Below, in pieces: positions 12,390 through 48,670 of a DNA stretch of 64,000 nt. The notes beneath the pieces are model-generated. The model searched no databases. It was not told the origin of the DNA and saw nothing but the letters and a program-made list of their open reading frames with translations. A program made the position numbers and the translations under genes. Position 1 is the first letter of the stretch. Each line of letters begins with the position of its first letter. This DNA comes from an uncultured Bacilli bacterium. Lineage in GTDB: Bacteria > Bacillota_I > Bacilli_A > ML615J-28 > CAG-313. The stretch is taken from NCBI GenBank assembly GCA_944326155.1, contig CALVCV010000001.1, positions 121,184-185,183 of the forward strand. Direction: 5' to 3'.

Positions 12390-12415
12390 TTAAATGATTA
12401 TGAAGATAATATAAA

Positions 12416-12456
12416 AGTGTATAGGAAACCATTGTCCTATACACTTATTGTTTTTT
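12416..12456. terminator. intrinsic terminator between trmL and the lipoprotein gene
   Basis: Hairpin AGTGTATAGGA-aaccattg-TCCTATACACT (12416..12445), followed by a T-rich run. Confidence 0.55.
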
Positions 12457-12635
12457 AGATACTCTAGTAGTTGAATCAAATACTTCTATTTCTTCTTCTA
12501 AATGATTACGATACATTTCAGGATGACGATAAAAATATTCATCGTTTTCAACTACTGAATGAATTGGTTTTGTCACTTTATCTTGCAAATTATCACTTCC
12601 AGTAATAGTTTATGGAAATACAAGTGGCTTATACT

Positions 12636-36994: not shown

Positions 36995-38179
36995 ATGCAA
37001 AAATTATTAGTAAAATTATTTATTAAGGATTACCAAAAGATTCATGATCCTAAAGTTCGTAGCAAATATGGCACGCTATCAGGAATTACGGGAATTGTTA
37101 GTAATATAATCTTGTGTAGCATTAAAATTATTCTTGGTATTATTACCGCAAGTCTGTCCATTCTTGCAGACGGAATCAATAACTTAACAGATGCTGGTTC
37201 TTCTGTTATTACCCTTGTTGGTTTTAAATTATCAAGTATACCAGCTGATGAAGATCATCCTTTTGGTCATGAAAGAATTGAATATATTACTGGTCTTATC
37301 ATATCATTTTTAATCTTAATTATTGGTTTTACCCTAGGTAAAGAATCAGTTACAAAGTTAATCACCAAGGAAGTTACACAAACAATTTCATTTAGTATTA
37401 TTATTATAATGATTCTATCGATTTTAATTAAACTTTGGCAATCGATATTCTACCGTAAAATGGCTAAAGCTATTAATTCAGAAGCCCTATTTGCAAGTTC
37501 AAAAGATAGTTTAAATGACTGTATTTCAACATCAGCAGTTATTATTGGATTAATTATTTTTAAATTTACAAATTGGGAACCAATTGATGGTATTTTAGGA
37601 ATAATTGTTGCCATTTTTATTTTAATTTCAGGTATAAAAATGGTCTTTGAAACAGTCAATCCATTAATTGGCACAAAACCCACACAAGAAGAAATTAATA
37701 GTATTACAAAAAAAATTTTAAGTTACCAAGGTGTTATTGGCGTTCATGATTTAGTTATTCACCATTATGGTAGTTGCACTACTTTTGTAACAGCCCATGT
37801 TGAAGTACCAAGTGATGAAGATATTGTTATTAGTCATGATATCATTGACAATATTGAAAGAGAATTACGTACTCAATTGGGCATTGATTTAACGCTTCAC
37901 ATGGACCCCGTCGATATCAAAAACCCTAGAACCAATGAATTACGTCAAAAAGTTGTAAATATTATAGAAAGTATTAGTAAAGATTTATCTATTCATGATT
38001 TTAGAGTTGTATATGGTGATACACATACCAATTTAGTATTTGATGTAGCTATGCCAATTAAATTTAGTTGTAGTAAAAAAGAACTAAAAGATTTAATTAC
38101 TAGCGAAATTAAAAAATTAGATGAAACTTATTTTCCAGTAATTCAAATTGATCAACTATATAATCGTAATGAAGAATAA
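36995..38179 (+). CDS. cation diffusion facilitator (CDF) family metal efflux transporter
   Basis: 394 aa. 6 TM plus a C-terminal cytoplasmic domain. LADGINNLTDAGSS with HD/His sites. Confidence 0.85.
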   Translation: MQKLLVKLFIKDYQKIHDPKVRSKYGTLSGITGIVSNIILCSIKIILGIITASLSILADGINNLTDAGSSVITLVGFKLSSIPADEDHPFGHERIEYITGLIISFLILIIGFTLGKESVTKLITKEVTQTISFSIIIIMILSILIKLWQSIFYRKMAKAINSEALFASSKDSLNDCISTSAVIIGLIIFKFTNWEPIDGILGIIVAIFILISGIKMVFETVNPLIGTKPTQEEINSITKKILSYQGVIGVHDLVIHHYGSCTTFVTAHVEVPSDEDIVISHDIIDNIERELRTQLGIDLTLHMDPVDIKNPRTNELRQKVVNIIESISKDLSIHDFRVVYGDTHTNLVFDVAMPIKFSCSKKELKDLITSEIKKLDETYFPVIQIDQLYNRNEE

Positions 38180-38213
38180 AAAATTCACAAATTAATTGTG
38201 AATTTTTTATTTT

Positions 38214-38948
38214 TTATAAAAGTATTTCCGAAAAATTTACATATTCTAAATCTAATATATCTTGTATTACTATATTTGCATTCTTATTCCATGAAACCAT
38301 ATTAATAGTATAAACACTAAGTCCTGAATTGGCATATGAACTATTATAATCAACTAGATTAATCTTACCACCTCTAGTCCTTATGTAATCAATTAATTTT
38401 TTTAAATCAGATCTTGAAAATAGTTCAACATGAATTTCAAGTGTATTGGAATTCTTAGTAAAGATTTTTTCCAATCTTGGTAAGAAAACAAAGGCAACTA
38501 AAGCAAATATTGTACCAATAATACCAACTGTATAAAAACCGATACCAATTGATAAGCCAATACATGCTGAAACCCAAAGACCTGCTGCCGTCGTTAATCC
38601 TTTAATTTGACTTCTTGATGTTACTAAAATTGTACCTGCACCTAAAAAACCAATACCGCTTATAACTTGTGCACCAAGCCTACCAATATCTCCTTGACCA
38701 TATACCTCAAAAATATATTGATTTGTAAAAATGGCAATCATTGCACCAAGTGACACCAAAATATATGTTCTAAATCCTGCTGCATGTCTTCTTCTTGCTC
38801 TTTCCAAACCGATTAAACCAGCACAAATAAATGTTAAAATAAAACGAACTAATATAGACCAAATTGAAATATCGCCAATAAGATCTTCAAGTCCTAGCCA
38901 ATTTGTAATCGGATCAATATAATTTATATTACTCATTTCAAACATCAT
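38214..38948 (-). CDS. mgtC: MgtC/SapB family membrane protein
   Basis: 244 aa. N-terminal MgtC TM domain, C-terminal ACT-like domain. Confidence 0.75.
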   Translation of the reverse strand: MMFEMSNINYIDPITNWLGLEDLIGDISIWSILVRFILTFICAGLIGLERARRRHAAGFRTYILVSLGAMIAIFTNQYIFEVYGQGDIGRLGAQVISGIGFLGAGTILVTSRSQIKGLTTAAGLWVSACIGLSIGIGFYTVGIIGTIFALVAFVFLPRLEKIFTKNSNTLEIHVELFSRSDLKKLIDYIRTRGGKINLVDYNSSYANSGLSVYTINMVSWNKNANIVIQDILDLEYVNFSEILL

Positions 38949-38979
38949 TCAATTCTCCTTCATTTTTCTTTATATTTTA

Positions 38980-41022
38980 TTAATATTTAAAAACGATAAT
39001 TCCAGGTTTATCAATTACATAAGTTTGTACTTCTTCATCAACTATTTTTGTTCCATCAAATACTAATCTACTACCAGGTGCTAAAATTTTTATATGTTTT
39101 TCATAGTCATTGCTAATAATCATTTTATATATATCTTTATCATTACCAAAAAACCATAATTGAGGTAATTCAAAAGAAGTATCTAATTTAATATATTTTT
39201 CAACATCTAAATTATTACTACAAGATAAAGCAAATATTCTACTTCTTAGCAGTAGTAAATCTTCTAATATTTTGCTTAAATTAGGATTATGATCCCATAT
39301 GATACCATTAATTTCATCACTTGCATTATAAGAATTATCAATAAATTTTTTAGTTCTTAATAATTCTTGGCCAGCATGAATAAAAGGTATACCACAAGAT
39401 AATAAAACCATTCCTAAAGCTAATTTTAAGTAATCTAAAATTTCTTCGGTTGAAAAATTGGGCCTTTTTAATCTAATTAAATCATATAAAGTGTAATTAT
39501 CATGACATTCGACATAATTAATTGATTGGTTAGTAGACAAAAAAGCTTTATTATTATAACGAGCCGTTAAAAGATTGAAAATTTCAATTTGATTTAATTT
39601 TTCACCTATTAAATAACCACTACTATTATCAATGCCTCTTAATTTATTTCTAAAATAATCATTAAAGAACGAAATAGATGGTAATTTATCAAAATTATTT
39701 AGATTTGCTCTTTTGTTTTCATCCAAAACAACATCCATATTCCATCCTTCACCATAAAGCATCGTCTTAGGATTAATCTTTTTCGTATGATCTACAATTA
39801 GTTTCATTGTATCAATATCAATTAAGCCCATTAGATCAAAACGAAAGCCATCAATCTTATAAAATTTTTGATAATACTCTATAGTATCTAAAATTAATTT
39901 TCGTACCATTAAATGTTCAGTACATAAATCATTCCCACACCAAGATGAATTGGTCAAATAACCATATGCGTTGGTTCTAAAAGTATATCCTGGAACTAAT
40001 TTTTCAAATGGAAACCACTTATTATCATATACATGATTAAAAACTACATCCATATTAACTCCCATGCCAATTTTATGAATCGTATCAATTAAAACTTTAA
40101 GCTCATTGATTCTTTCATAAGGATCATTGGGATTTTTACTAAAAAAACCACTGGGCACCATATATTGCATGGGATTATAGCCCCAATTGTATAAAAAACC
40201 ATCTTTTTTTTCATCACGAATATTTTCATCGACACCACCAAAAGCAAAAATCGGTAATAATTGAAGATGCGTAAATGGCATTTTTTTAATATATCCTAAA
40301 CCATAGGTGGAATTTAGCGAATCTATTAAGGCATCATATGTTCCTTTATTTTGTGAAGTAGTTAGTGATGTTGCATCTCTAATATTCAGTTCATAAATAC
40401 ATGCATTTAATTCATCATCATTTAATTTTCGATAATAATCATGTTTCATCACGTAAGTTTGTTTTTTATCAATTACATAATTGAATTCATTATTAGCATT
40501 TGATGAAATAGCATAAGGATCTAACGTTTCATCAAAAGTTTGATTAACTCTAAATTTATAATAATATTTACAACCTTCTAAATCTTTATGAATGGTAACT
40601 TCCCATAAACCTTTTTGTTGATAAATCAATTGATAACTAATTTGATCAATAATAACCGATATTTCTTTTATAACAGGCGACCATATTCTAAAAATCGTTT
40701 TTTCTTTACTATATTTAAAGCCAAGCCAATCATCAAAATAATATTTCTTATCAAAATTGTGTGATCTGGTGATTTTGCCTAATTGTAAAAATTCGCTTCC
40801 GATATTTTGAATTTCAATGTATGTATCAATATTAGGTTCTAATTCCTCTAAACTTTTTAAATATACATGCTGATAAGAATCTTTAATTTCCAAACGTTGA
40901 ATAATTAATGGTATTTTTTTGTCTAAAACTTTTGCATAAATCAATTTACCACTAATATTCATATTATTAGAAATAATAATTTTAACATCATTAAAGTCTT
41001 CTAAATATGCGGAAAAAATCAT
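38980..41022 (-). CDS. type I pullulanase-like glycoside hydrolase (GH13)
   Basis: 680 aa. N-terminal CBM-like region. GH13 catalytic motifs GFRFDLMG, EGWNM, YVECHDN. Confidence 0.8.
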   Translation of the reverse strand: MIFSAYLEDFNDVKIIISNNMNISGKLIYAKVLDKKIPLIIQRLEIKDSYQHVYLKSLEELEPNIDTYIEIQNIGSEFLQLGKITRSHNFDKKYYFDDWLGFKYSKEKTIFRIWSPVIKEISVIIDQISYQLIYQQKGLWEVTIHKDLEGCKYYYKFRVNQTFDETLDPYAISSNANNEFNYVIDKKQTYVMKHDYYRKLNDDELNACIYELNIRDATSLTTSQNKGTYDALIDSLNSTYGLGYIKKMPFTHLQLLPIFAFGGVDENIRDEKKDGFLYNWGYNPMQYMVPSGFFSKNPNDPYERINELKVLIDTIHKIGMGVNMDVVFNHVYDNKWFPFEKLVPGYTFRTNAYGYLTNSSWCGNDLCTEHLMVRKLILDTIEYYQKFYKIDGFRFDLMGLIDIDTMKLIVDHTKKINPKTMLYGEGWNMDVVLDENKRANLNNFDKLPSISFFNDYFRNKLRGIDNSSGYLIGEKLNQIEIFNLLTARYNNKAFLSTNQSINYVECHDNYTLYDLIRLKRPNFSTEEILDYLKLALGMVLLSCGIPFIHAGQELLRTKKFIDNSYNASDEINGIIWDHNPNLSKILEDLLLLRSRIFALSCSNNLDVEKYIKLDTSFELPQLWFFGNDKDIYKMIISNDYEKHIKILAPGSRLVFDGTKIVDEEVQTYVIDKPGIIVFKY

Positions 41023-41038
41023 CTTTCATCCTCCCTAT

Positions 41039-41599
41039 TTATTCGTCAATATTAGAATCATCATAACTTTTTTTATTACTTTCAATCACAATTAATGTGC
41101 CAATTCCCACACAAGCCGTAGTAAGTAAGGCAAAAAATATTGAAATCGTCCAATTTACTTCTTCTTTTAACCATCTTCCTGCAGGTATATAAAATTTTTT
41201 ATCATTTTTTTCATAATTATCTACATTTATATAACTAATTTCAAGTTCCAAAGTGCCAGTTTGCCAATTTTCAATCGTGTAATTAATTTGATAATAATGT
41301 TTGTGTTTATCATTTTCATTATCGACTTGATGATAATATTCAATATTTGAAAAAATTTGTTCAATATCGGCAATTTTAGAAGTAATTGCTGTGATAATAA
41401 TTTCTTTTTCGGTACTCCAGCTTAAAGATAATTCAACTTTTAATTTTCCATGCTCACGAATTTTAGCTGTTTCAAATTCAAAATTTTCAAATTCTACATC
41501 ATCTTCTATAGCAAACACCTCATTTGATGATTTGCAACAAATACAACAACAAATCGTTAAAACTAATAATAATAATGCTATTTTATTTATTTTTGTCAT
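41039..41599 (-). CDS. membrane-anchored protein with an N-terminal Cys cluster (CCCICC) and a C-terminal TM helix
   Basis: 186 aa. Signal-like N-terminus LLLLVLTICCCICCKSS. C-terminal TM segment ISIFFALLTTACVGIGTLIVI. Confidence 0.4.
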   Translation of the reverse strand: MTKINKIALLLLVLTICCCICCKSSNEVFAIEDDVEFENFEFETAKIREHGKLKVELSLSWSTEKEIIITAITSKIADIEQIFSNIEYYHQVDNENDKHKHYYQINYTIENWQTGTLELEISYINVDNYEKNDKKFYIPAGRWLKEEVNWTISIFFALLTTACVGIGTLIVIESNKKSYDDSNIDE

Positions 41600-42045
41600 T
41601 AACGATCACGCTCCTTAAAATTTTTTAAGTATTTATTCAAGGAAGCATTACTAATTTTAACTCTCAAAACGGAAATTAAAACAATAATAACAAGACCAAT
41701 TACTAAAAACATAATAGTCGCGATAAATAATTTAACATTATAAATTAAGTCATAAAAATAAAGCAAATAACCTGTTATTAAAATAATGGCTGATAAAAAT
41801 AAATAGATTACAATAACTTGAACAACAATCGAAATTTTATTTATTTGCAAAAACCCCAATAAAAACAAACTAGCAACTGATGAAATAATAGCAAAAATGA
41901 TTAAATTCTTACCAAAACTAATATCTTGATAAATATACTCCGAAATACTTGCAAAAATAATTGTAATAATGGCAAAAATTGTTAGGGTCATAACAAAATA
42001 ATTGGTAACAAGACTTTTTATTGGTAGTTTTTTCTTCTGTTTCAT
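41599..42045 (-). CDS. small polytopic membrane protein (candidate LytTR-system membrane partner)
   Basis: 148 aa, about 4 TM. Lies 13 nt downstream of the LytTR gene. Confidence 0.45.
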   Translation of the reverse strand: MKQKKKLPIKSLVTNYFVMTLTIFAIITIIFASISEYIYQDISFGKNLIIFAIISSVASLFLLGFLQINKISIVVQVIVIYLFLSAIILITGYLLYFYDLIYNVKLFIATIMFLVIGLVIIVLISVLRVKISNASLNKYLKNFKERDR

Positions 42046-42057
42046 TATTTTATTCTC

Positions 42058-42495
42058 CTATCCATTTAATTTTTGCTTAAAAGCTCTTGCATATACTCGA
42101 GTAATAATCATACGCTCATTGTTTATTAGTACAGCACTAATTCTTCCATTAACAAGAGTACTAACTTTTTCAATTTTATTGATATTTAAAATAATAGTTC
42201 TTGCAACTTGTATAAAAGATGTTCTAGCCAATATCTTAGTTAATTCTTGAAGTTTATAATTTACTTCATAGACATTTTTTTCTACATATGCAAAGACGCG
42301 ATTTTCCACAGCTTCAAAATAAAAAATATCGTCTAGGTTTAAAACATACGTTTCGCCATCCAATTTTCCATTAATCGTAATATAGCTTGTACGGATATAA
42401 TTACTAATTTTATGGATTTTATCATCTATTTTTTTACATTTAATGAAAATTTCTGTTTCTTCTAAATTTGAAACTTCATCAATTTGTAATTTCAT
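42058..42495 (-). CDS. LytTR-family DNA-binding protein (stand-alone, no receiver domain)
   Basis: 145 aa. LytTR-like pattern in KISNYIRTSYITINGK...FIQVARTIILNINKIEKV. Confidence 0.65.
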   Translation of the reverse strand: MKLQIDEVSNLEETEIFIKCKKIDDKIHKISNYIRTSYITINGKLDGETYVLNLDDIFYFEAVENRVFAYVEKNVYEVNYKLQELTKILARTSFIQVARTIILNINKIEKVSTLVNGRISAVLINNERMIITRVYARAFKQKLNG

Positions 42496-42512
42496 AAGTC
42501 ACCTCGCTGCTT

Positions 42513-43337
42513 CTATTTAAAACGGTTGCGGTATGTGCATTTCTTACACAATTCAAAATAGGGCTTCCGATTATTAAAGCCTAAAAGAGCTTCTTGACAA
42601 GTTTTACTAGCAAGTAAAGTAGGTAAATCATTAGTTAATAAATTACCAATTTTCGTTTTTCCCTGATAATCAAGGCAACACAAACAAAGCGTACCATCAT
42701 TTAAAATAGCAAACTGTTTTTTTCCACCATAACAGTTTGTTAAAGTGGTATTATAACTATGTTCTAGGGAAGGCCAAGTAAATTCGTCTGCTTTTGAAAT
42801 ATTAATATTAATACTACTTTTTACTATAGGTTGATAAATTTGTAATACTTTTTGTGTTAACAATAAATTAGTCAAATAATTTTTATTATTCCATAATCTT
42901 AAATTTATAGCAATCAAATGTTCTTTTTTTGATCTTTTTTCTAAAAATTCATTTAAATGCTTAAAATACAAATCTTGCTCAGCTTCATCAAAATTAATTA
43001 AACACTGGAGAGAAATATTTAATTTTTGTAAATATTGATATTTTAAGAGTTGATTTTCATATTTATATAACAACACTCCATTGGTAGTGATACCAAAAGG
43101 AATTTTATGTACTTCACAATAATCTAATATTTTGATAAAATTAGGATGCAAGGTAGGTTCGCCTAAAACATGAAAATAAAGAATTTTAATATACTCATGA
43201 ATTTTATCAATAAGTTGTATAACCATTTCAAATGGCATAAATTTATGTTTTTTAACATTAGATGATGGACAAAAAGGACATTTTAAATTACATGCTGTAG
43301 TAATTTCTAAGTAGAAATTATATTTTCTTTTGTTCAT
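42513..43337 (-). CDS. radical SAM enzyme with a C-terminal Cys-rich (SPASM/twitch-like) extension
   Basis: 274 aa. CNLKCPFCP is the CxxxCxxC motif. C-terminal Cys pattern: C-x15-C-x-CC...C...C-x2-C. Confidence 0.8.
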   Translation of the reverse strand: MNKRKYNFYLEITTACNLKCPFCPSSNVKKHKFMPFEMVIQLIDKIHEYIKILYFHVLGEPTLHPNFIKILDYCEVHKIPFGITTNGVLLYKYENQLLKYQYLQKLNISLQCLINFDEAEQDLYFKHLNEFLEKRSKKEHLIAINLRLWNNKNYLTNLLLTQKVLQIYQPIVKSSININISKADEFTWPSLEHSYNTTLTNCYGGKKQFAILNDGTLCLCCLDYQGKTKIGNLLTNDLPTLLASKTCQEALLGFNNRKPYFELCKKCTYRNRFK

Positions 43338-43894
43338 TTGTCAATTTCTTCAAATTCCGCATCAATAAAACTATTACCATTTGCTTGTTCCTCTTGCTTT
43401 TTAAAATGATTATTCGAAATAAATAGTAAAATAAATCCGTATGCTATAATCAAAATAGATATAATACGTAAAACCCACATACCTATATTTTCAATACCAC
43501 AAAAAATTAGCATTAAAGAAATAATGATTTTATATATTGCAATGCTAAATAAATCTTTTATTTTTTTAGTAAAAATTGCCATCAAAATTGTATAAAGCAA
43601 AAAACAAATACCTAAAATTAATGATACTAATCTCGATGAAAAAAACAATATAAATATACCAAAAATTATTTTAATAATACCATCATATAAATAGTTTTGA
43701 TGAAATGAAAAATTTATTTTCTTAATATTTATATGAATATATATAATGATACCACCAATAATGATTAAGCAAATTCCTAATATTTTTACAATTGCGTTGA
43801 TGATTGCGTCTCCAAAAGGCCATACAATGAGTGCAAAAATGGTACCTAAAATAATATAATACATACCAATCATAGATTTTTTATTCATAAACAT
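43334..43894 (-). CDS. polytopic membrane protein
   Basis: 186 aa, 5-6 TM. 4-nt overlap with the radical SAM gene. Confidence 0.5.
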   Translation of the reverse strand: MFMNKKSMIGMYYIILGTIFALIVWPFGDAIINAIVKILGICLIIIGGIIIYIHINIKKINFSFHQNYLYDGIIKIIFGIFILFFSSRLVSLILGICFLLYTILMAIFTKKIKDLFSIAIYKIIISLMLIFCGIENIGMWVLRIISILIIAYGFILLFISNNHFKKQEEQANGNSFIDAEFEEIDK

Positions 43895-43904
43895 ACGTTA
43901 ATCC

Positions 43905-44243
43905 TTATATAGTAGTTTTAGCAAAAAGTTTCAAATTTTTATTTGGCATAACTGACTCATTAAATAAAGTCATACATTCTTCATCTAAATACCAAGTATC
44001 TATATCTTGATAAGAATAAGAAAGAATTATATCTTTTTGTTTATAATATTTTGTATAGACTAGTTTTCCATCTACATAATAACGAATACGAAACTTTTTA
44101 AAAAAAATTAAGTATGCAATTAAGATAAACCATGGTAAAATGCCTAAAGTAAGCAAAATAATTTGAAAAGCATACCAATTTTTGCCTAATTCGTCAGCGG
44201 GAACATTTTCTAGTAATAAAAAAAAGCATCGAATATTAAACAT
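43905..44243 (-). CDS. small single-pass membrane protein
   Basis: 112 aa. One TM helix (FQIILLTLGILPWFILIAYLIFF) and a Tyr/Lys-rich C-terminal domain. Confidence 0.4.
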   Translation of the reverse strand: MFNIRCFFLLLENVPADELGKNWYAFQIILLTLGILPWFILIAYLIFFKKFRIRYYVDGKLVYTKYYKQKDIILSYSYQDIDTWYLDEECMTLFNESVMPNKNLKLFAKTTI

Positions 44244-44964
44244 TATTTGTCTCCTTTAATTCTAAAATACGATATTTCCATTTTTTATTCAATATAGTTA
44301 AATATTTTTTTGATGTTAATAGTATTAATTTTTGATACACAAAAAGCAAATCATTTTTTGCTCCTTCATCTAAAAGTTTTTGATATACTTTTTCCATATG
44401 AAGAGCTACTAATCGGTAGTAATAATATGCATTAATTGGTTTATTTAAATTATAAAAAGCATTAGCTAAAAACAATTTAGATAAAACTATAAATTTTAAA
44501 TCTTCATTGGTTTTGGTCTTTTTATATAATTGTTTTGCCTTATGTAACATTTTTTTACTAGTTATAACAATATAATTGCCATCATTATTATCAAACATCA
44601 AATTAATCGTTTTGATATACCAATCAATTAAATATCTTAATTCATCCATGCTAGAATTAATTTCTGATGAATCTTGCAAAATACCAATAATTTTTTGATA
44701 CCAACGTTGAACTAAATCTTTTCTTGAATTATTCACATAATACTCACTTATTTTTTGATAACATTCTATCACTTTTAGGCGATCTTTATGAGAAAAGGTG
44801 TGGCGATATAGATTTTCAGCAATTCTACAAGTTTTTAAATATAACTTTTCAGCTTCAATCATGTTTCCATTTAGTTCAAAATTATTTGCTTGTTGCAAGA
44901 TTTCAGAAAGCTTTATTCTTTTTTCATTGTTTGTTAATTCTTTTTTGTCAATTTTAGTTTCCAT
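44236..44964 (-). CDS. soluble all-helical (TPR-like) protein, first gene of the operon
   Basis: 242 aa. AAAGGG RBS. Overlaps the next gene by 8 nt. Confidence 0.4.
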   Translation of the reverse strand: METKIDKKELTNNEKRIKLSEILQQANNFELNGNMIEAEKLYLKTCRIAENLYRHTFSHKDRLKVIECYQKISEYYVNNSRKDLVQRWYQKIIGILQDSSEINSSMDELRYLIDWYIKTINLMFDNNDGNYIVITSKKMLHKAKQLYKKTKTNEDLKFIVLSKLFLANAFYNLNKPINAYYYYRLVALHMEKVYQKLLDEGAKNDLLFVYQKLILLTSKKYLTILNKKWKYRILELKETNNV

Positions 44965-45234
44965 TTTTACTACCCTTTCTAATTAATTATATCATTTATT
45001 CATATTTTTTTCAATTTATTTATCAATAATTAAATAAAAAAGTATTTAACTAAACAATTTACTCCTGTTTTTGATAGTGTTTTTTCTACTATTTGCAAAA
45101 AATCTTATAAATTACATCCATATTTTTAACCATCTTTTATTTTTTTATGATAACTCTAATGCAAGTTAGAAAAAATAATTATATAACTTTGCCTATATCT
45201 AAACTTTTTATCTTTTTACGAAACTATTTTTTTC

Positions 45235-45264
45235 ATTATACACTTATTTTTCACTATTTGTAAA
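45235..45264 (-). promoter_or_regulatory. strong sigma-A promoter driving the 44964..41039 operon, with an upstream duplicate element
   Basis: Minus strand TTTACA (rc of 45259..45264), 18-nt spacer, TATAAT (rc of 45235..45240). A 20/23-nt near-copy of the -35/spacer element (TTTGCAAATAGTAGAAAAA) recurs at 45081..45106. Confidence 0.5.
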
Positions 45265-45460
45265 AATTTTTAATCTAAATAATTCTTTTTCAATGCTAGC
45301 ATAAAATTATTACTTAAAATATAAATCACAATACTACTTTTGTTATTGTATGTCAATACTTTTATATAAAACAAAAAGAAAAGCGCTCATAGATGACCCA
45401 AATATTGGTATTCTATTATCGCTTTTTCTTTTTGCTTTTATAAGCCTTATCAAATTTTAT

Positions 45461-45895
45461 CTAGTGGATTTGTTCACTAAAATTATTTTCATTTAAAATT
45501 ACTATTCCATTTTTATATAATAAATCAGCTGTAATTCCATTCCCACCTACTAAATTTGAAGAGAAAGTTCCATCATATATTTTGCCAAATCCACAAGAAG
45601 GACTATTGCTTTTTAAAATGGCAATTTCACATTGATTCTCATTGGCAATATCCAATGCACGAAGCGCACCTTTTATAAAATTTTTGGTAACATCAAGATT
45701 ATTTTTAGTAATAACCTTATTTTGTCTTACTTCGCTTGGTACTCTAGGAGTTTTTAATCCACCCAAAACTTCAGGACATATCGGTATGAGATGATAGTTT
45801 TTTTCTAAATTCTTAACACTAGGACATAGATTATTTTTACCATTATATTTACAATTAATACCTAATAAACAACTGCTCACTAAAATATTCATCAA
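45461..45895 (-). CDS. DUF523-family protein
   Basis: 144 aa. N-terminal ILVSSCLLGINCKYNGKNN matches the DUF523 signature. Confidence 0.65.
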   Translation of the reverse strand: MMNILVSSCLLGINCKYNGKNNLCPSVKNLEKNYHLIPICPEVLGGLKTPRVPSEVRQNKVITKNNLDVTKNFIKGALRALDIANENQCEIAILKSNSPSCGFGKIYDGTFSSNLVGGNGITADLLYKNGIVILNENNFSEQIH

Positions 45896-45902
45896 AATCT
45901 CC

Positions 45903-46568
45903 TTAATTATTATTTTTAACTATAGGTGAATAGTTTCCTAACATAGTATGATCTAAGTTATCTTTGGCAAGACAAAGTTGCATTTGATATTGTAAAATAT
46001 CTCTTTTATAGTCTTCCATTCCAAAATTATCATATAGATATTTTGCATAATCATAAGCTTCTTCAAACATCGAAATTCTACGATATAAGTCAACAATAAT
46101 TAATCTAATATTTTGATTATCTTCGTCCTTTAGTGATAATTCCAAAAAATGAATTGCTTTACTGCGCGTTTTTAAAGCAGTAGTTGTATCTTTGCTATCG
46201 TCAGCCATCCAACTTGCTCTTAGATAACTCATACCAGCTTTTTTAGCATCCCTTTTTTCTAATAATAAAGCAATTAACATAAATTTTTTTAATGCAAAAT
46301 TAATATTAGCATTGTTTAATATAAGTTGATAATGTTCATCATCAAGTTCACTCTTTTGAAAATCAATTAATATTTGACGAATATCATAATTGGTGTATCC
46401 ACATTTTGGACATTTTTCAACCATCAAATGCATGAAAGTTCTAGCTATTCCTGGAGGTCTTGTATCTAAATCACGCATGCCAAAAGTTTCATCATTATAT
46501 AATTTTTGATAATGATAGTTATACCCACAAACTGCACATTTCTTTTCAATATTTTTAATAGTATTCAT
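45903..46568 (-). CDS. zinc-ribbon + TPR-like protein (DUF2225-like)
   Basis: 221 aa. N-terminal CAVCG...CPKCG zinc ribbon, helical repeat C-terminus. Confidence 0.45.
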   Translation of the reverse strand: MNTIKNIEKKCAVCGYNYHYQKLYNDETFGMRDLDTRPPGIARTFMHLMVEKCPKCGYTNYDIRQILIDFQKSELDDEHYQLILNNANINFALKKFMLIALLLEKRDAKKAGMSYLRASWMADDSKDTTTALKTRSKAIHFLELSLKDEDNQNIRLIIVDLYRRISMFEEAYDYAKYLYDNFGMEDYKRDILQYQMQLCLAKDNLDHTMLGNYSPIVKNNN

Positions 46569-47521: not shown

Positions 47522-48670
47522 CTACTTTACTAAAATGATTTTTTCAAGATTTTCTTTATTAAGTTTTGAACCAATGACTACAAATCTACCAATAAAATCT
47601 TCCGTGCCTTCATTAATTTGATAATCTCCACATACATAATCAAAATAATACCATTTAACATTATCGCTAGCCTTAAGAATCCCTTTAGCACGTAAAACTA
47701 TACCACAGTTATTTTCATCTTTTAGTGCTTCTAGAATTTTAGTAAGTTCTTCTTTTGAATATGATTTTGCACTTTCAAAACCATAAGAAACAAATACTTC
47801 ATCGGCATCATGATGATGATGTTCACCTTCTTCATCATGATGATGAGAGCATCCTTCACCTTCTTCATCGTGATGATGATGACAGCATCCTTCACCTTCT
47901 TCATCATGATGATGATGACAGCATCCTTCACCTTCTTCATCATGATGATGATGACAGCATCCTTCACCTTCTTCATCGTGATGATGATGACAGCATCCTT
48001 CACCTTCTTCATCGTGATGATGATGACAGCAATGATGTTCATTTTCTAATTCTTGTTTCATTTCATCAGTAATTGAAGCATTCTTTTCTAAAATTTCAAG
48101 TAACTTGAATGCATCTACATTAGGTAAATTTGCTAAAACAATATTTGCATTCGGATTTTGTGATTTAATTAGATTATAAACTTCAATTATCTTATCATCA
48201 GCCAATTTTTCTACTTTACTAATAACAATTGTTCTTGCGTCCTCTACTTGATTATTAAAAAATTCACCAAAGTTCTTAATGTATATTTTACACTTTGAAC
48301 CATCTACAACAGTTGCAACAATATTCAAGACTATATCTAATTTTAATTTTTCAACAGCTTTGATAATATCTGAAAGTTTACCTACACCAGATGGCTCAAT
48401 GACTATTCTTTCAGGATGAAAAGTATCAATTACTTCTTTCATTGATTTTGAAAAATCACCAACTAAAGAGCAACAAATACATCCAGAATTAATTTCTCTA
48501 ATATCAATTCCTGATTCTTTTAAGAAACTGCCATCTATGCCAATTTCACCAAATTCATTTTCTATTAAAACAATTTTTTCATCATTAAATCTAGTTTTTA
48601 AAAGTTGTTTAATTAAAGTTGTTTTACCAGCTCCTAAAAAACCTGAAATAATATCAACTTTTATACTCAT
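47522..48670 (-). CDS. COG0523 (CobW/YciC-like) metallochaperone GTPase with a His/Cys-rich repeat insert
   Basis: 382 aa. Walker A GFLGAGKTT and metal-binding GCICCS. Insert HHCCHHHHDEEGEG(CCHHHHDEEGEG)x4...HHHHDADE lies between the GTPase and C-terminal domains. Confidence 0.85.
   Translation of the reverse strand: MSIKVDIISGFLGAGKTTLIKQLLKTRFNDEKIVLIENEFGEIGIDGSFLKESGIDIREINSGCICCSLVGDFSKSMKEVIDTFHPERIVIEPSGVGKLSDIIKAVEKLKLDIVLNIVATVVDGSKCKIYIKNFGEFFNNQVEDARTIVISKVEKLADDKIIEVYNLIKSQNPNANIVLANLPNVDAFKLLEILEKNASITDEMKQELENEHHCCHHHHDEEGEGCCHHHHDEEGEGCCHHHHDEEGEGCCHHHHDEEGEGCCHHHHDEEGEGCSHHHDEEGEHHHHDADEVFVSYGFESAKSYSKEELTKILEALKDENNCGIVLRAKGILKASDNVKWYYFDYVCGDYQINEGTEDFIGRFVVIGSKLNKENLEKIILVK
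47813..48028. repeat. 36-bp tandem repeat (about 5.5 copies) inside the COG0523 gene
   Basis: Unit gcatccttcaccttcttcatc[a/g]tgatgatgatgaca repeated head-to-tail. It encodes CCHHHHDEEGEG on the minus strand. It also generates spurious antisense ORFs (47731..48042, 47755..48072, 47810..48049). Confidence 0.9.

Follow-up and report, generated by a model that had tools for sequence, protein, structure and literature searches.

LytTR regulatory systems (LRS) pair a stand-alone LytTR DNA-binding protein with a membrane protein encoded directly downstream (Zou et al. 2018, PMC6193735). Autoregulation in these systems goes with direct repeats of about 9 bp, spaced 11–13 bp apart and lying 4–11 bp upstream of the operon −35 element (PMC6193735). 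LRS are proposed to form a class of their own among bacterial sensory systems, but characterised examples come only from Streptococcus mutans. DUF3021 is the partner family named for the putative LRS of Staphylococcus aureus (SACOL_RS12395/12400), and a further putative system of this type is Listeria monocytogenes lmo0984-0987 (PMC6193735). These partners are essentially unstudied and rarely mentioned in the literature searched. Among radical S-adenosylmethionine (SAM) enzymes, the twitch domain is a shortened form of the SPASM domain with one auxiliary cluster, where a full SPASM domain has two (PMC9012708). Here we describe a locus in which an LRS-like gene set adjoins a twitch radical SAM enzyme, in a 64,000-nt stretch (the window; all positions below are counted within it unless a related locus is named) of contig CALVCV010000001.1, from an uncultured gut Bacilli bacterium with a genome of about 27% GC.

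The genes for a small radical SAM enzyme, a LytTR protein, two membrane-associated proteins (g6 and g7) and a type I pullulanase follow one another on the minus strand, and this order recurs in relatives whose flanking genes are different. Our preferred reading is that of a composite nine-gene operon, with an LRS-type trio (LytTR, g6 and g7) set between an orphan twitch radical SAM enzyme and a pullulanase; taken whole, we judge it about evenly poised between right and wrong. No publication linking LytTR, radical SAM and pullulanase was found.

Gene order and the extent of the transcription unit

The first-pass annotation of this DNA described an operon of seven tightly packed minus-strand genes ending at 41039. 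All seven open reading frames (ORFs) were recovered, in transcription order at 44236–44964 (g1), 43905–44243 (g2), 43334–43894 (g3), 42513–43337 (the radical SAM gene), 42058–42495 (LytTR), 41599–42045 (g6) and 41039–41599 (g7). The packing is indeed tight, but that is the norm here: 37 of the 56 same-strand neighbour pairs in the window are separated by 20 nt or less, with a median gap of 12 nt, and the minus strand carries 58 of the 63 window genes. The packing is therefore not distinctive, and tight spacing carries no information in this genome.

The unit was also found to run past 41039. The pullulanase gene (38980–41022, minus strand) follows g7 after a 16-nt gap, and mgtC (38214–38948, minus strand; Pfam MgtC E 2.9e-36), encoding an MgtC-family membrane protein, follows after another 31 nt, each preceded by its own Shine-Dalgarno sequence. 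On the 5′ side the boundary is a long predicted hairpin terminator at 45362–45443 (minus strand; RNA fold −28.1 kcal/mol, z −7.8; inverted repeat I1), which closes the upstream cobW-cobW-DUF2225-DUF523 operon. On the 3′ side an AT-rich, bidirectional hairpin terminator at 38172–38213 (minus strand; −15.2 kcal/mol, z −7.8, then a U-run) would close both the unit after mgtC and a convergent CDF gene. No terminator was found between the two hairpins, the sole terminator-like match in the scan lying inside the radical SAM coding sequence. Because the hairpins bracket the genes, none separates them and the gaps to pullulanase and mgtC are short, we take the unit to comprise nine genes. Proteins identical to those of the window occur on 21 metagenome contigs.

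A proximal promoter, TTGAAA-17-TGATATAAT, with an extended −10 element (11/12 consensus match with TG), is predicted at 44986–45014 on the minus strand and is followed by the ribosome-binding site AGAAAGGG. The 30 nt around it are identical in the related locus L007, where the proteins are only 54–87% identical; the promoter appears to have been kept while the coding sequence diverged, and its design recurs in L088, L124, L120, L087 and L119. The leader (44965–45460), put forward at first pass as a 260-nt feature, measures 496 nt and is the window's largest intergenic gap. It is not conserved: its counterpart in L007 spans about 92 nt, and the two have in common only the proximal ~75 nt with the promoter. 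It holds a degenerate internal duplication of about 150–165 nt, including the 20-mer TTTTnCAAATAGTnGAAAAA twice (45081–45100 and 45246–45265), and an Rfam E-value scan of 38000–46500 returned no riboswitch or leader RNA. As a separate observation, a perfect 12/12 sigma-70 consensus (TTGACA-16-TATAAT) lies at 43317–43344 on the minus strand, straddling the g3 stop and the radical SAM start. A transcript from this candidate promoter would miss the radical SAM start codon but include LytTR and the later genes. In general, promoter-like sites are no more frequent than chance would give, with 70 found and 68 expected.

To compare the locus across relatives, species genomes were scanned with an alignment of the radical SAM enzyme and metagenome contigs with an alignment of the LytTR protein, and four exact-protein look-ups were added. 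LytTR proteins at least 49% identical to that of the window, clustered at 90% identity, gave 22 lineages. The radical SAM gene lies directly upstream of LytTR in 17 of the 19 that could be assessed, which makes the linkage proposed at first pass a real one within this clade. Directly downstream of LytTR, g6 is present in all lineages (22/22), and the pullulanase follows the cassette in 16 of 17 assessable lineages. The full five-gene order of radical SAM, LytTR, g6, g7 and pullulanase is kept in about 16–17 lineages, down to 39% radical SAM identity. The flanks, meanwhile, vary by lineage, with a cobW block, DUF2089/DUF4097, MFS/DUF218 or GH127 upstream, and MgtC, a cyclic-di-AMP receptor or convergent ABC/FtsX genes downstream. 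Because the flanks differ so widely, the five-gene order is conserved beyond background synteny. The operon as originally drawn included two genes that prove peripheral, g1 and g2, and omitted its most constant partner, the pullulanase.

The components can also be found apart. In L130 a sigma-70-like gene is followed by LytTR-g6-g7-pullulanase with no radical SAM gene, and in L119 a transposase fragment is followed by LytTR-g6-g7 and then an aldo-keto reductase, with both radical SAM and pullulanase absent. Conversely, L016 and L090 have g3, radical SAM and pullulanase without the LytTR trio. The trio is thus separable from the radical SAM gene and vice versa. The first-pass annotation had held that finding the LytTR/membrane pair independently of the other genes would tell against their coupling; such independence is seen in L119, in L130 and in more distant relatives linked to ABC-2 transporters (35–50% identity), while the lineages counted above mostly retain the radical SAM gene. 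In L119, transposase-like ORFs at 145–1344 of that locus lie directly upstream of the only trio lacking both radical SAM and pullulanase, which suggests rearrangement via a mobile element, the label 'transposase' coming from our reading of the sequence.

These data bear directly on the possibility of historical juxtaposition, in which a compact, strand-biased genome has left the radical SAM gene, the trio and the pullulanase sharing a promoter and not a function. Tight packing as a genomic norm fits this explanation, as do the separable components and the gene run in L008, L010 and L114, which is unbroken from the cobW genes onward. It also gains from three results described below: outside the clade the radical SAM family keeps no conserved partners, the related LytTR/DUF3021 pairs are associated with ABC-2 transporters, and no LytTR-type repeats were found at the promoter. 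It sits poorly, however, with a five-gene order that has outlasted the replacement of both flanks. The upstream cobW-DUF523 block is present only in the nearest relatives, and in several lineages the unit begins with a dedicated promoter directly before the radical SAM gene or g3. We therefore regard juxtaposition as unlikely, though it is an explanation to be taken seriously.

The LytTR trio and its promoter

The LytTR protein (145 aa; 42058–42495, minus strand) matches the Pfam LytTR domain over residues 48–143 (E 5e-21). It has no receiver domain, other domain or transmembrane (TM) or hydrophobic segment, and it is the stand-alone regulator that it was first taken for. Conservation within the block is highest for this gene, at 79–87% identity versus 45–61% for the radical SAM enzyme, with 39 invariant columns across 9 lineages. 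The g6 gene (41599–42045, minus strand) starts 12 nt after it and encodes a 148-aa protein with four TM segments by hydropathy and a conserved C-terminal LNxxLKxFKERD motif, which is probably a divergent DUF3021-type protein. Pfam DUF3021 is matched by 4 of 9 g6 orthologues (best E 7.7e-6), and in L143 the partner of a 38%-identical LytTR protein reaches 40.4 bits, where the cutoff is 24.7.

The third member, g7 (186 aa; 41039–41599, minus strand), combines a signal peptide, predicted to be cleavable, with an immunoglobulin (Ig)-like ectodomain, a C-terminal TM anchor and an acidic tail. AlphaFold2 models the ectodomain as an eight-strand Ig-like beta-sandwich (predicted local distance difference test, pLDDT, 81.5; 86–95 over the larger part of the ectodomain). 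An exhaustive HMMER search of 1.84 billion proteins gave 21 representatives of what is a tiny family; word-indexed homologue searches returned only 1 protein for g7 and 8 for g6. Within the clade, g7 is detectable by BLAST in 20 of the 22 lineages, and L119 has a protein of the same architecture. The fold match is generic, with no match to a carbohydrate-binding module (CBM) family, and an assignment as a sarcinarray/MAST domain was rejected, the weak match appearing in only 2 of 19 members. The CCCICC run of g7 that had been singled out as an unusual cluster is present, but it lies in the hydrophobic core of the signal peptide, where orthologues have ordinary hydrophobic residues. A metal or lipid site was rejected for this location and for the absence of the run from orthologues.

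LytTR, g6 and g7 together are a self-contained module of the LytTR-regulatory-system kind. The likeness to LRS suggested at first pass holds for protein architecture and probable DUF3021 kinship and fails for the autoregulatory repeats, and the bacteriocin or competence setting suggested with it has no such genes in the unit. For LytTR relatives at 35–50% identity, the next gene almost always encodes a 4-TM protein of 125–156 aa, and genes for an ABC ATPase and an ABC-2 permease usually come before. Loci L132–L171 (e.g. L143, 2265–5227) carry four-gene operons of this kind, in the order ABC ATPase, ABC-2 permease, LytTR and DUF3021, with two to three tandem GCAnCTTAC repeats upstream at a period of 20–21 bp; these match the lmo0984 and SMU_1070c-type repeats tabulated in PMC6193735. 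Another observation from the relatives, though not the window, is that several lineages have convergent MacB-like ABC/FtsX genes as the immediate downstream neighbours of the cassette (L087, 12434–16870; L091, 12446–16834; L090, 11031–15968; L119, 5741–8173; L130, 5109–7001), which is of interest given the linkage of LytTR/DUF3021 pairs to ABC transporters elsewhere.

A scan with the canonical ACCACTTAT-type LRS repeat found nothing at the cassette promoters of the window or 14 related loci, but it also missed the positive controls. The scan was rebuilt on the GCAnCTTAC motif of the ABC-linked relatives, and in this form it recovered repeats in 9/9 of those relatives and none at the cassette promoters in the window or 17 related loci. 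Across the whole 64-kb window it gave 4 low-scoring matches, against 1–11 in shuffled sequence, and neither of the two scans gave window counts above those of shuffled DNA. A de novo direct-repeat search of the window's intergenic regions produced two weak 8/9 matches, of which the one at 12570 was rejected as it lies inside what reads as an unannotated small coding gene. The promoter sits flush against the upstream terminator in L007, L012 and L091, leaving no room for a repeat site. The cassette module is LRS-like in its proteins but lacks the tested autoregulatory signature. Because no autoregulatory repeats were found and the extended −10 promoter abuts an upstream terminator, the targets of the regulator most likely lie outside its own promoter.

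The radical SAM enzyme, the pullulanase and the outer genes

The radical SAM enzyme (274 aa; 42513–43337, minus strand) matches Pfam Radical_SAM (E 9e-14) and SPASM (7e-11), in agreement with the SPASM/twitch-like cysteine cluster noted at first pass. Its cysteines are C16-x3-C20-x2-C23, then C202, C220, C221, C264 and C267. In a profile search of PDB sequences BtrN came first (E 1.5e-17) with both halves aligned, and C202, C220, C264 and C267 align to the four cysteines of the BtrN C-terminal twitch region. BtrN was also the top PDB match of the AlphaFold2 model (pLDDT 89.6; predicted template modelling score, pTM, 0.88) in Foldseek (2e-10), followed by SuiB, BlsE, DesII, anSME, EpeE and SpeY. 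From the alignment and the model, we predict a twitch domain with one auxiliary [4Fe-4S] cluster and not a full SPASM domain. The remaining cysteine, C221, is the second of a CCLD motif; it is invariant (80/80) in an 80-sequence family alignment, and BtrN has Phe at the aligned position. Its role may be catalytic, or it may serve as an additional, family-specific ligand.

In the same alignment C16, C20 and C23 are kept in 79/80 sequences and all five C-terminal cysteines in 80/80, and about 50 positions are conserved in at least 90% of sequences. By this measure the homologues are one coherent family. It comprises 923 protein clusters at E ≤1e-5, and its loci in species genomes number at least 591. 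Among the matches listed, members occur in Bacillus (including the Bacillus cereus group), Paenibacillus, Lysinibacillus, Clostridia, Erysipelotrichaceae and Spirochaetota at 30–37% identity, with 'Staphylococcus sp. CAG:324' and metagenome-assembled genomes of Acholeplasmatales or Anaeroplasma as the nearest records that bear a name. The classification that the first-pass annotation had recommended yielded no NCBIfam model near cutoff, including those for maturases of peptides that are ribosomally synthesised and then post-translationally modified (RiPPs), for the window enzyme or for members from L029 (Paenibacillus sp. TAB 01), L050 (Bacillus pseudomycoides) and L013. The analysis therefore flags a large and coherent twitch radical SAM family, with about 50 near-invariant positions, for which there is no curated model.

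Neighbourhood conservation, also recommended as a check, depends on where one looks: the five-gene core is kept within the clade, but across 70 distant loci outside it the neighbourhood of the radical SAM gene is not conserved and only generic ABC ATPases recur. In L013–L015 the context is ispD-ispF-nifU-like-TM-rSAM-S1-pgi (rSAM being the radical SAM gene), and elsewhere it is essentially random. No aminoglycoside genes were seen in any of the radical SAM neighbourhoods looked at. PADLOC identified no defence system, giving partial pVip matches to the N-terminal radical SAM core only and none for the other six proteins.

The pullulanase (680 aa; coordinates above) is a type I enzyme of family GH13 with CBM48, scoring 518.5 bits against the TIGR02104 cutoff of 504.5 and matching Pfam CBM_48 and Alpha-amylase. 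Its translation contains the catalytic signature motifs DVVFNH, YNWGYNP, GFRFDLM, EGW and ECHD and has no signal peptide. It is an ordinary cytoplasmic TIGR02104 equivalog, and only its operon partners are unusual.

With BtrN as the best match in both sequence and fold, and the sugar-modifying BlsE, DesII, SpeY and AbmM among the other top matches, one could picture a carbohydrate module. In such a module g3, the radical SAM enzyme and the pullulanase would work on the same alpha-glucan-derived substrate, with the twitch enzyme oxidising a sugar or cyclitol hydroxyl anaerobically in the manner of BtrN, and the pathway would be tuned by the trio, whose Ig-like protein would detect a glycan outside the cell. 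The persistence of g3, radical SAM and pullulanase without the trio is in keeping with this, as is the pullulanase being the most constant neighbour of both the radical SAM gene and the trio. Yet among the loci examined outside the clade the radical SAM family never adjoins a GH13 gene, the pullulanase is of the ordinary cytoplasmic kind, g7 has a generic fold match and resembles no CBM family, and the unit has no sugar transporter, so that we find this explanation improbable.

Very improbable, in our judgement, is the idea closest to the first-pass annotation, that an LRS controls a radical SAM/SPASM maturase modifying a peptide or small membrane protein in a bacteriocin-like or quorum-type system: an LRS-like pair does adjoin an enzyme with an auxiliary-cluster domain in most lineages, and the peptide-modifying SuiB, anSME and EpeE are among the fold matches, but one auxiliary cluster is predicted (five C-terminal cysteines, four of them aligned to the single cluster of BtrN), only 15 residues precede the cluster motif (from residue 16), so that a RiPP recognition element (RRE) or any other N-terminal extension is lacking, the unit contains neither a protease nor an exporter gene, the same family is stand-alone in Bacillus, Paenibacillus, Clostridia and Spirochaetota, and trio and enzyme are separable. 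As had been noted at first pass, no precursor-peptide ORF is evident; no conserved small ORF was found at the locus, and leader ORFs of 22–48 aa were rejected as precursors, the leader not being conserved. Given one auxiliary cluster and no RRE, conserved small ORF or conserved neighbours, a RiPP or protein-maturase role specific to the operon is unlikely. We conclude that the locus does not conceal a RiPP or bacteriocin cluster, and genome-mining pipelines should not count it as one.

Of the outer genes, g1 (242 aa; 44236–44964, minus strand) encodes a soluble, all-helical protein with no Pfam or NCBIfam family. The helical part of its earlier description as TPR-like stands, and support for TPR itself is weak: its best PDB profile match is the TPR protein APPBP2 (E 0.005), and Pfam TPR is not matched. 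Orthologues are found in L007–L009, the L092–L099 group and L114, with a weak 28% match in L128. The single-pass membrane protein g2 (112 aa; 43905–44243, minus strand) has a hydrophobic segment at 25–43 and a C-terminal domain weakly resembling Flg_new, the Listeria-Bacteroides repeat (E 0.012); its homologue in L091 carries PF09479, and its position varies among relatives. Both g1 and g2 are mainly confined to the nearest relatives. The g3 protein (186 aa; 43334–43894, minus strand) has six TM segments, is weakly DUF308-like and ends in an acidic tail; the stop of its gene overlaps the radical SAM start by 4 nt, and it is present in 5 of 14 assessable LytTR lineages. Hydropathy gives 0, 1, 6, 0, 0, 4 and 2 hydrophobic segments for the seven proteins in order, in agreement with the topologies proposed at first pass for g2 (single-pass), g3 (polytopic), g6 (4-TM) and g7 (signal/TM-anchored). 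Apart from the radical SAM and LytTR proteins, none of the seven matches a Pfam or NCBIfam family above threshold. The mgtC gene follows the pullulanase only in the window genome and L007.

Two observations were made further afield. The putative small coding gene met in the repeat search (12390–12635, minus strand) is intergenic at the 100-aa ORF cutoff and reads as the 3′ part of a gene ending TAA. It is followed by a hairpin terminator (GTGTATAGGA...TCCTATACAC) and sits between a SpoU methylase gene and the gene of a 544-aa protein without a Pfam family. Upstream of the unit, a CobW-family GTPase gene (47522–48670, minus strand) contains 5.9 tandem copies of a 36-nt unit at 47822–48031 (96% matches), which encodes CCHHHHDEEGEG, a Cys/His-rich insert that looks metal-binding. 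The protein measures 382 aa here, whereas another sample from this species has one of 394 aa, and copy number therefore appears variable.

Proposed reading and comparison with known systems

In the composite-operon reading, the promoter at 44986–45014 and the terminator at 38172–38213 would delimit a single transcription unit of nine genes, driven by the strong extended −10 promoter and built on the stable five-gene cassette. By analogy with HdrRM and BrsRM of S. mutans, LytTR would be held inactive by its membrane partner g6 and released on an envelope or extracellular cue, which would probably be read through the lineage-specific Ig-like ectodomain of g7. Its targets would most likely lie beyond the unit's own promoter, and the module may have a regulatory link to the pullulanase. 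The radical SAM enzyme would have a small molecule or some common cellular compound as its substrate. The arrangement of g3, radical SAM and pullulanase appears to be the older one, with the trio inserted into it.

Several points weigh against this reading. The window's g6 itself scores 13.6 bits against DUF3021 (E 0.076), below the gathering threshold of 24.7, yet with a full-length alignment. The absence of repeats applies to the GCAnCTTAC and ACCnCTTAn motifs only, over about 7–8 kb on either side, and a divergent AT-rich LytTR site may overlap the promoter. One candidate, TAAATAAAT-11-TGAATAAAT, is found in both the window and L007 and is not significant in DNA of 25% GC. The BtrN fold match is a moderate one (TM-score 0.58–0.64), and the peptide-modifying SuiB, anSME and EpeE score nearly as well. 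We infer co-transcription from sequence alone. Finally, the radical SAM and LytTR genes stay adjacent in 17 of 19 lineages even as the flanks change, a hint of some functional tie not explained by the composite-operon reading.

A bolder proposal would be that the locus encodes a new three-component LytTR signalling system, made up of a regulator, a DUF3021 tether and an Ig-like extracellular sensor, which has dropped autoregulation and been wired to a twitch radical SAM enzyme and a debranching enzyme. It would serve anaerobic glycan sensing and processing, with a new radical SAM oxidation acting on an alpha-glucan-derived or related small molecule. We consider this a long shot; were it true, a large orphan radical SAM family spread across Bacillota would also gain a first handle on its function.

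Set against described enzymes, the radical SAM protein resembles SuiB, AlbA, SkfB and anSME in having a radical SAM core and a C-terminal Fe-S domain matched by Pfam SPASM, and these are among its fold neighbours. They are larger, however, with PDB chains of 370–459 aa against 274 aa here. As a class, SPASM maturases bind two auxiliary clusters (PMC9012708), whereas one is predicted here, and they often have an RRE and stand beside precursor or substrate genes, neither of which was found at this locus. BtrN, the 2-deoxy-scyllo-inosamine dehydrogenase (PDB 4M7S/4M7T), is similarly small (246 residues in the 4M7T chain) and has the same CxxxCxxC motif. At about 15% identity and a TM-score of about 0.6, the enzyme does not qualify as a BtrN orthologue; it differs in the extra invariant C221, in the family motifs HxxGEP, RxW, FxWP and CCLD, and in lacking an aminoglycoside biosynthesis context.

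The regulatory trio shares with HdrRM and BrsRM a soluble, stand-alone LytTR gene directly upstream of, and here predicted to be co-transcribed with, a gene for a small polytopic membrane protein. The partner is DUF3021-like and not of the HdrM (DUF2154) or BrsM type, an anchored Ig-like protein forms a third constant component, and the module stands mid-operon between radical SAM and pullulanase genes. It also differs in having no 9-bp direct repeats found upstream of the −35 element and no bacteriocin or competence genes. The DUF3021-type LRS, including those of L132–L171, have an ABC ATPase and an ABC-2 permease where the cassette instead has g7, radical SAM and pullulanase, and GCAnCTTAC-11/12-GCAnCTTAC lies upstream of the ABC-linked pairs (9/9 checked) and not of the cassette. 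What these systems have in common with the cassette is a LytTR protein of about 145 aa, 35–50% identical to that of the window, followed by a 4-TM DUF3021-type protein of about 140–155 aa. The cassette can thus be described as a relative of the DUF3021-type LRS that has an extracytoplasmic protein as its third component and shows none of the hallmark repeats, which points to a broader range of such systems.

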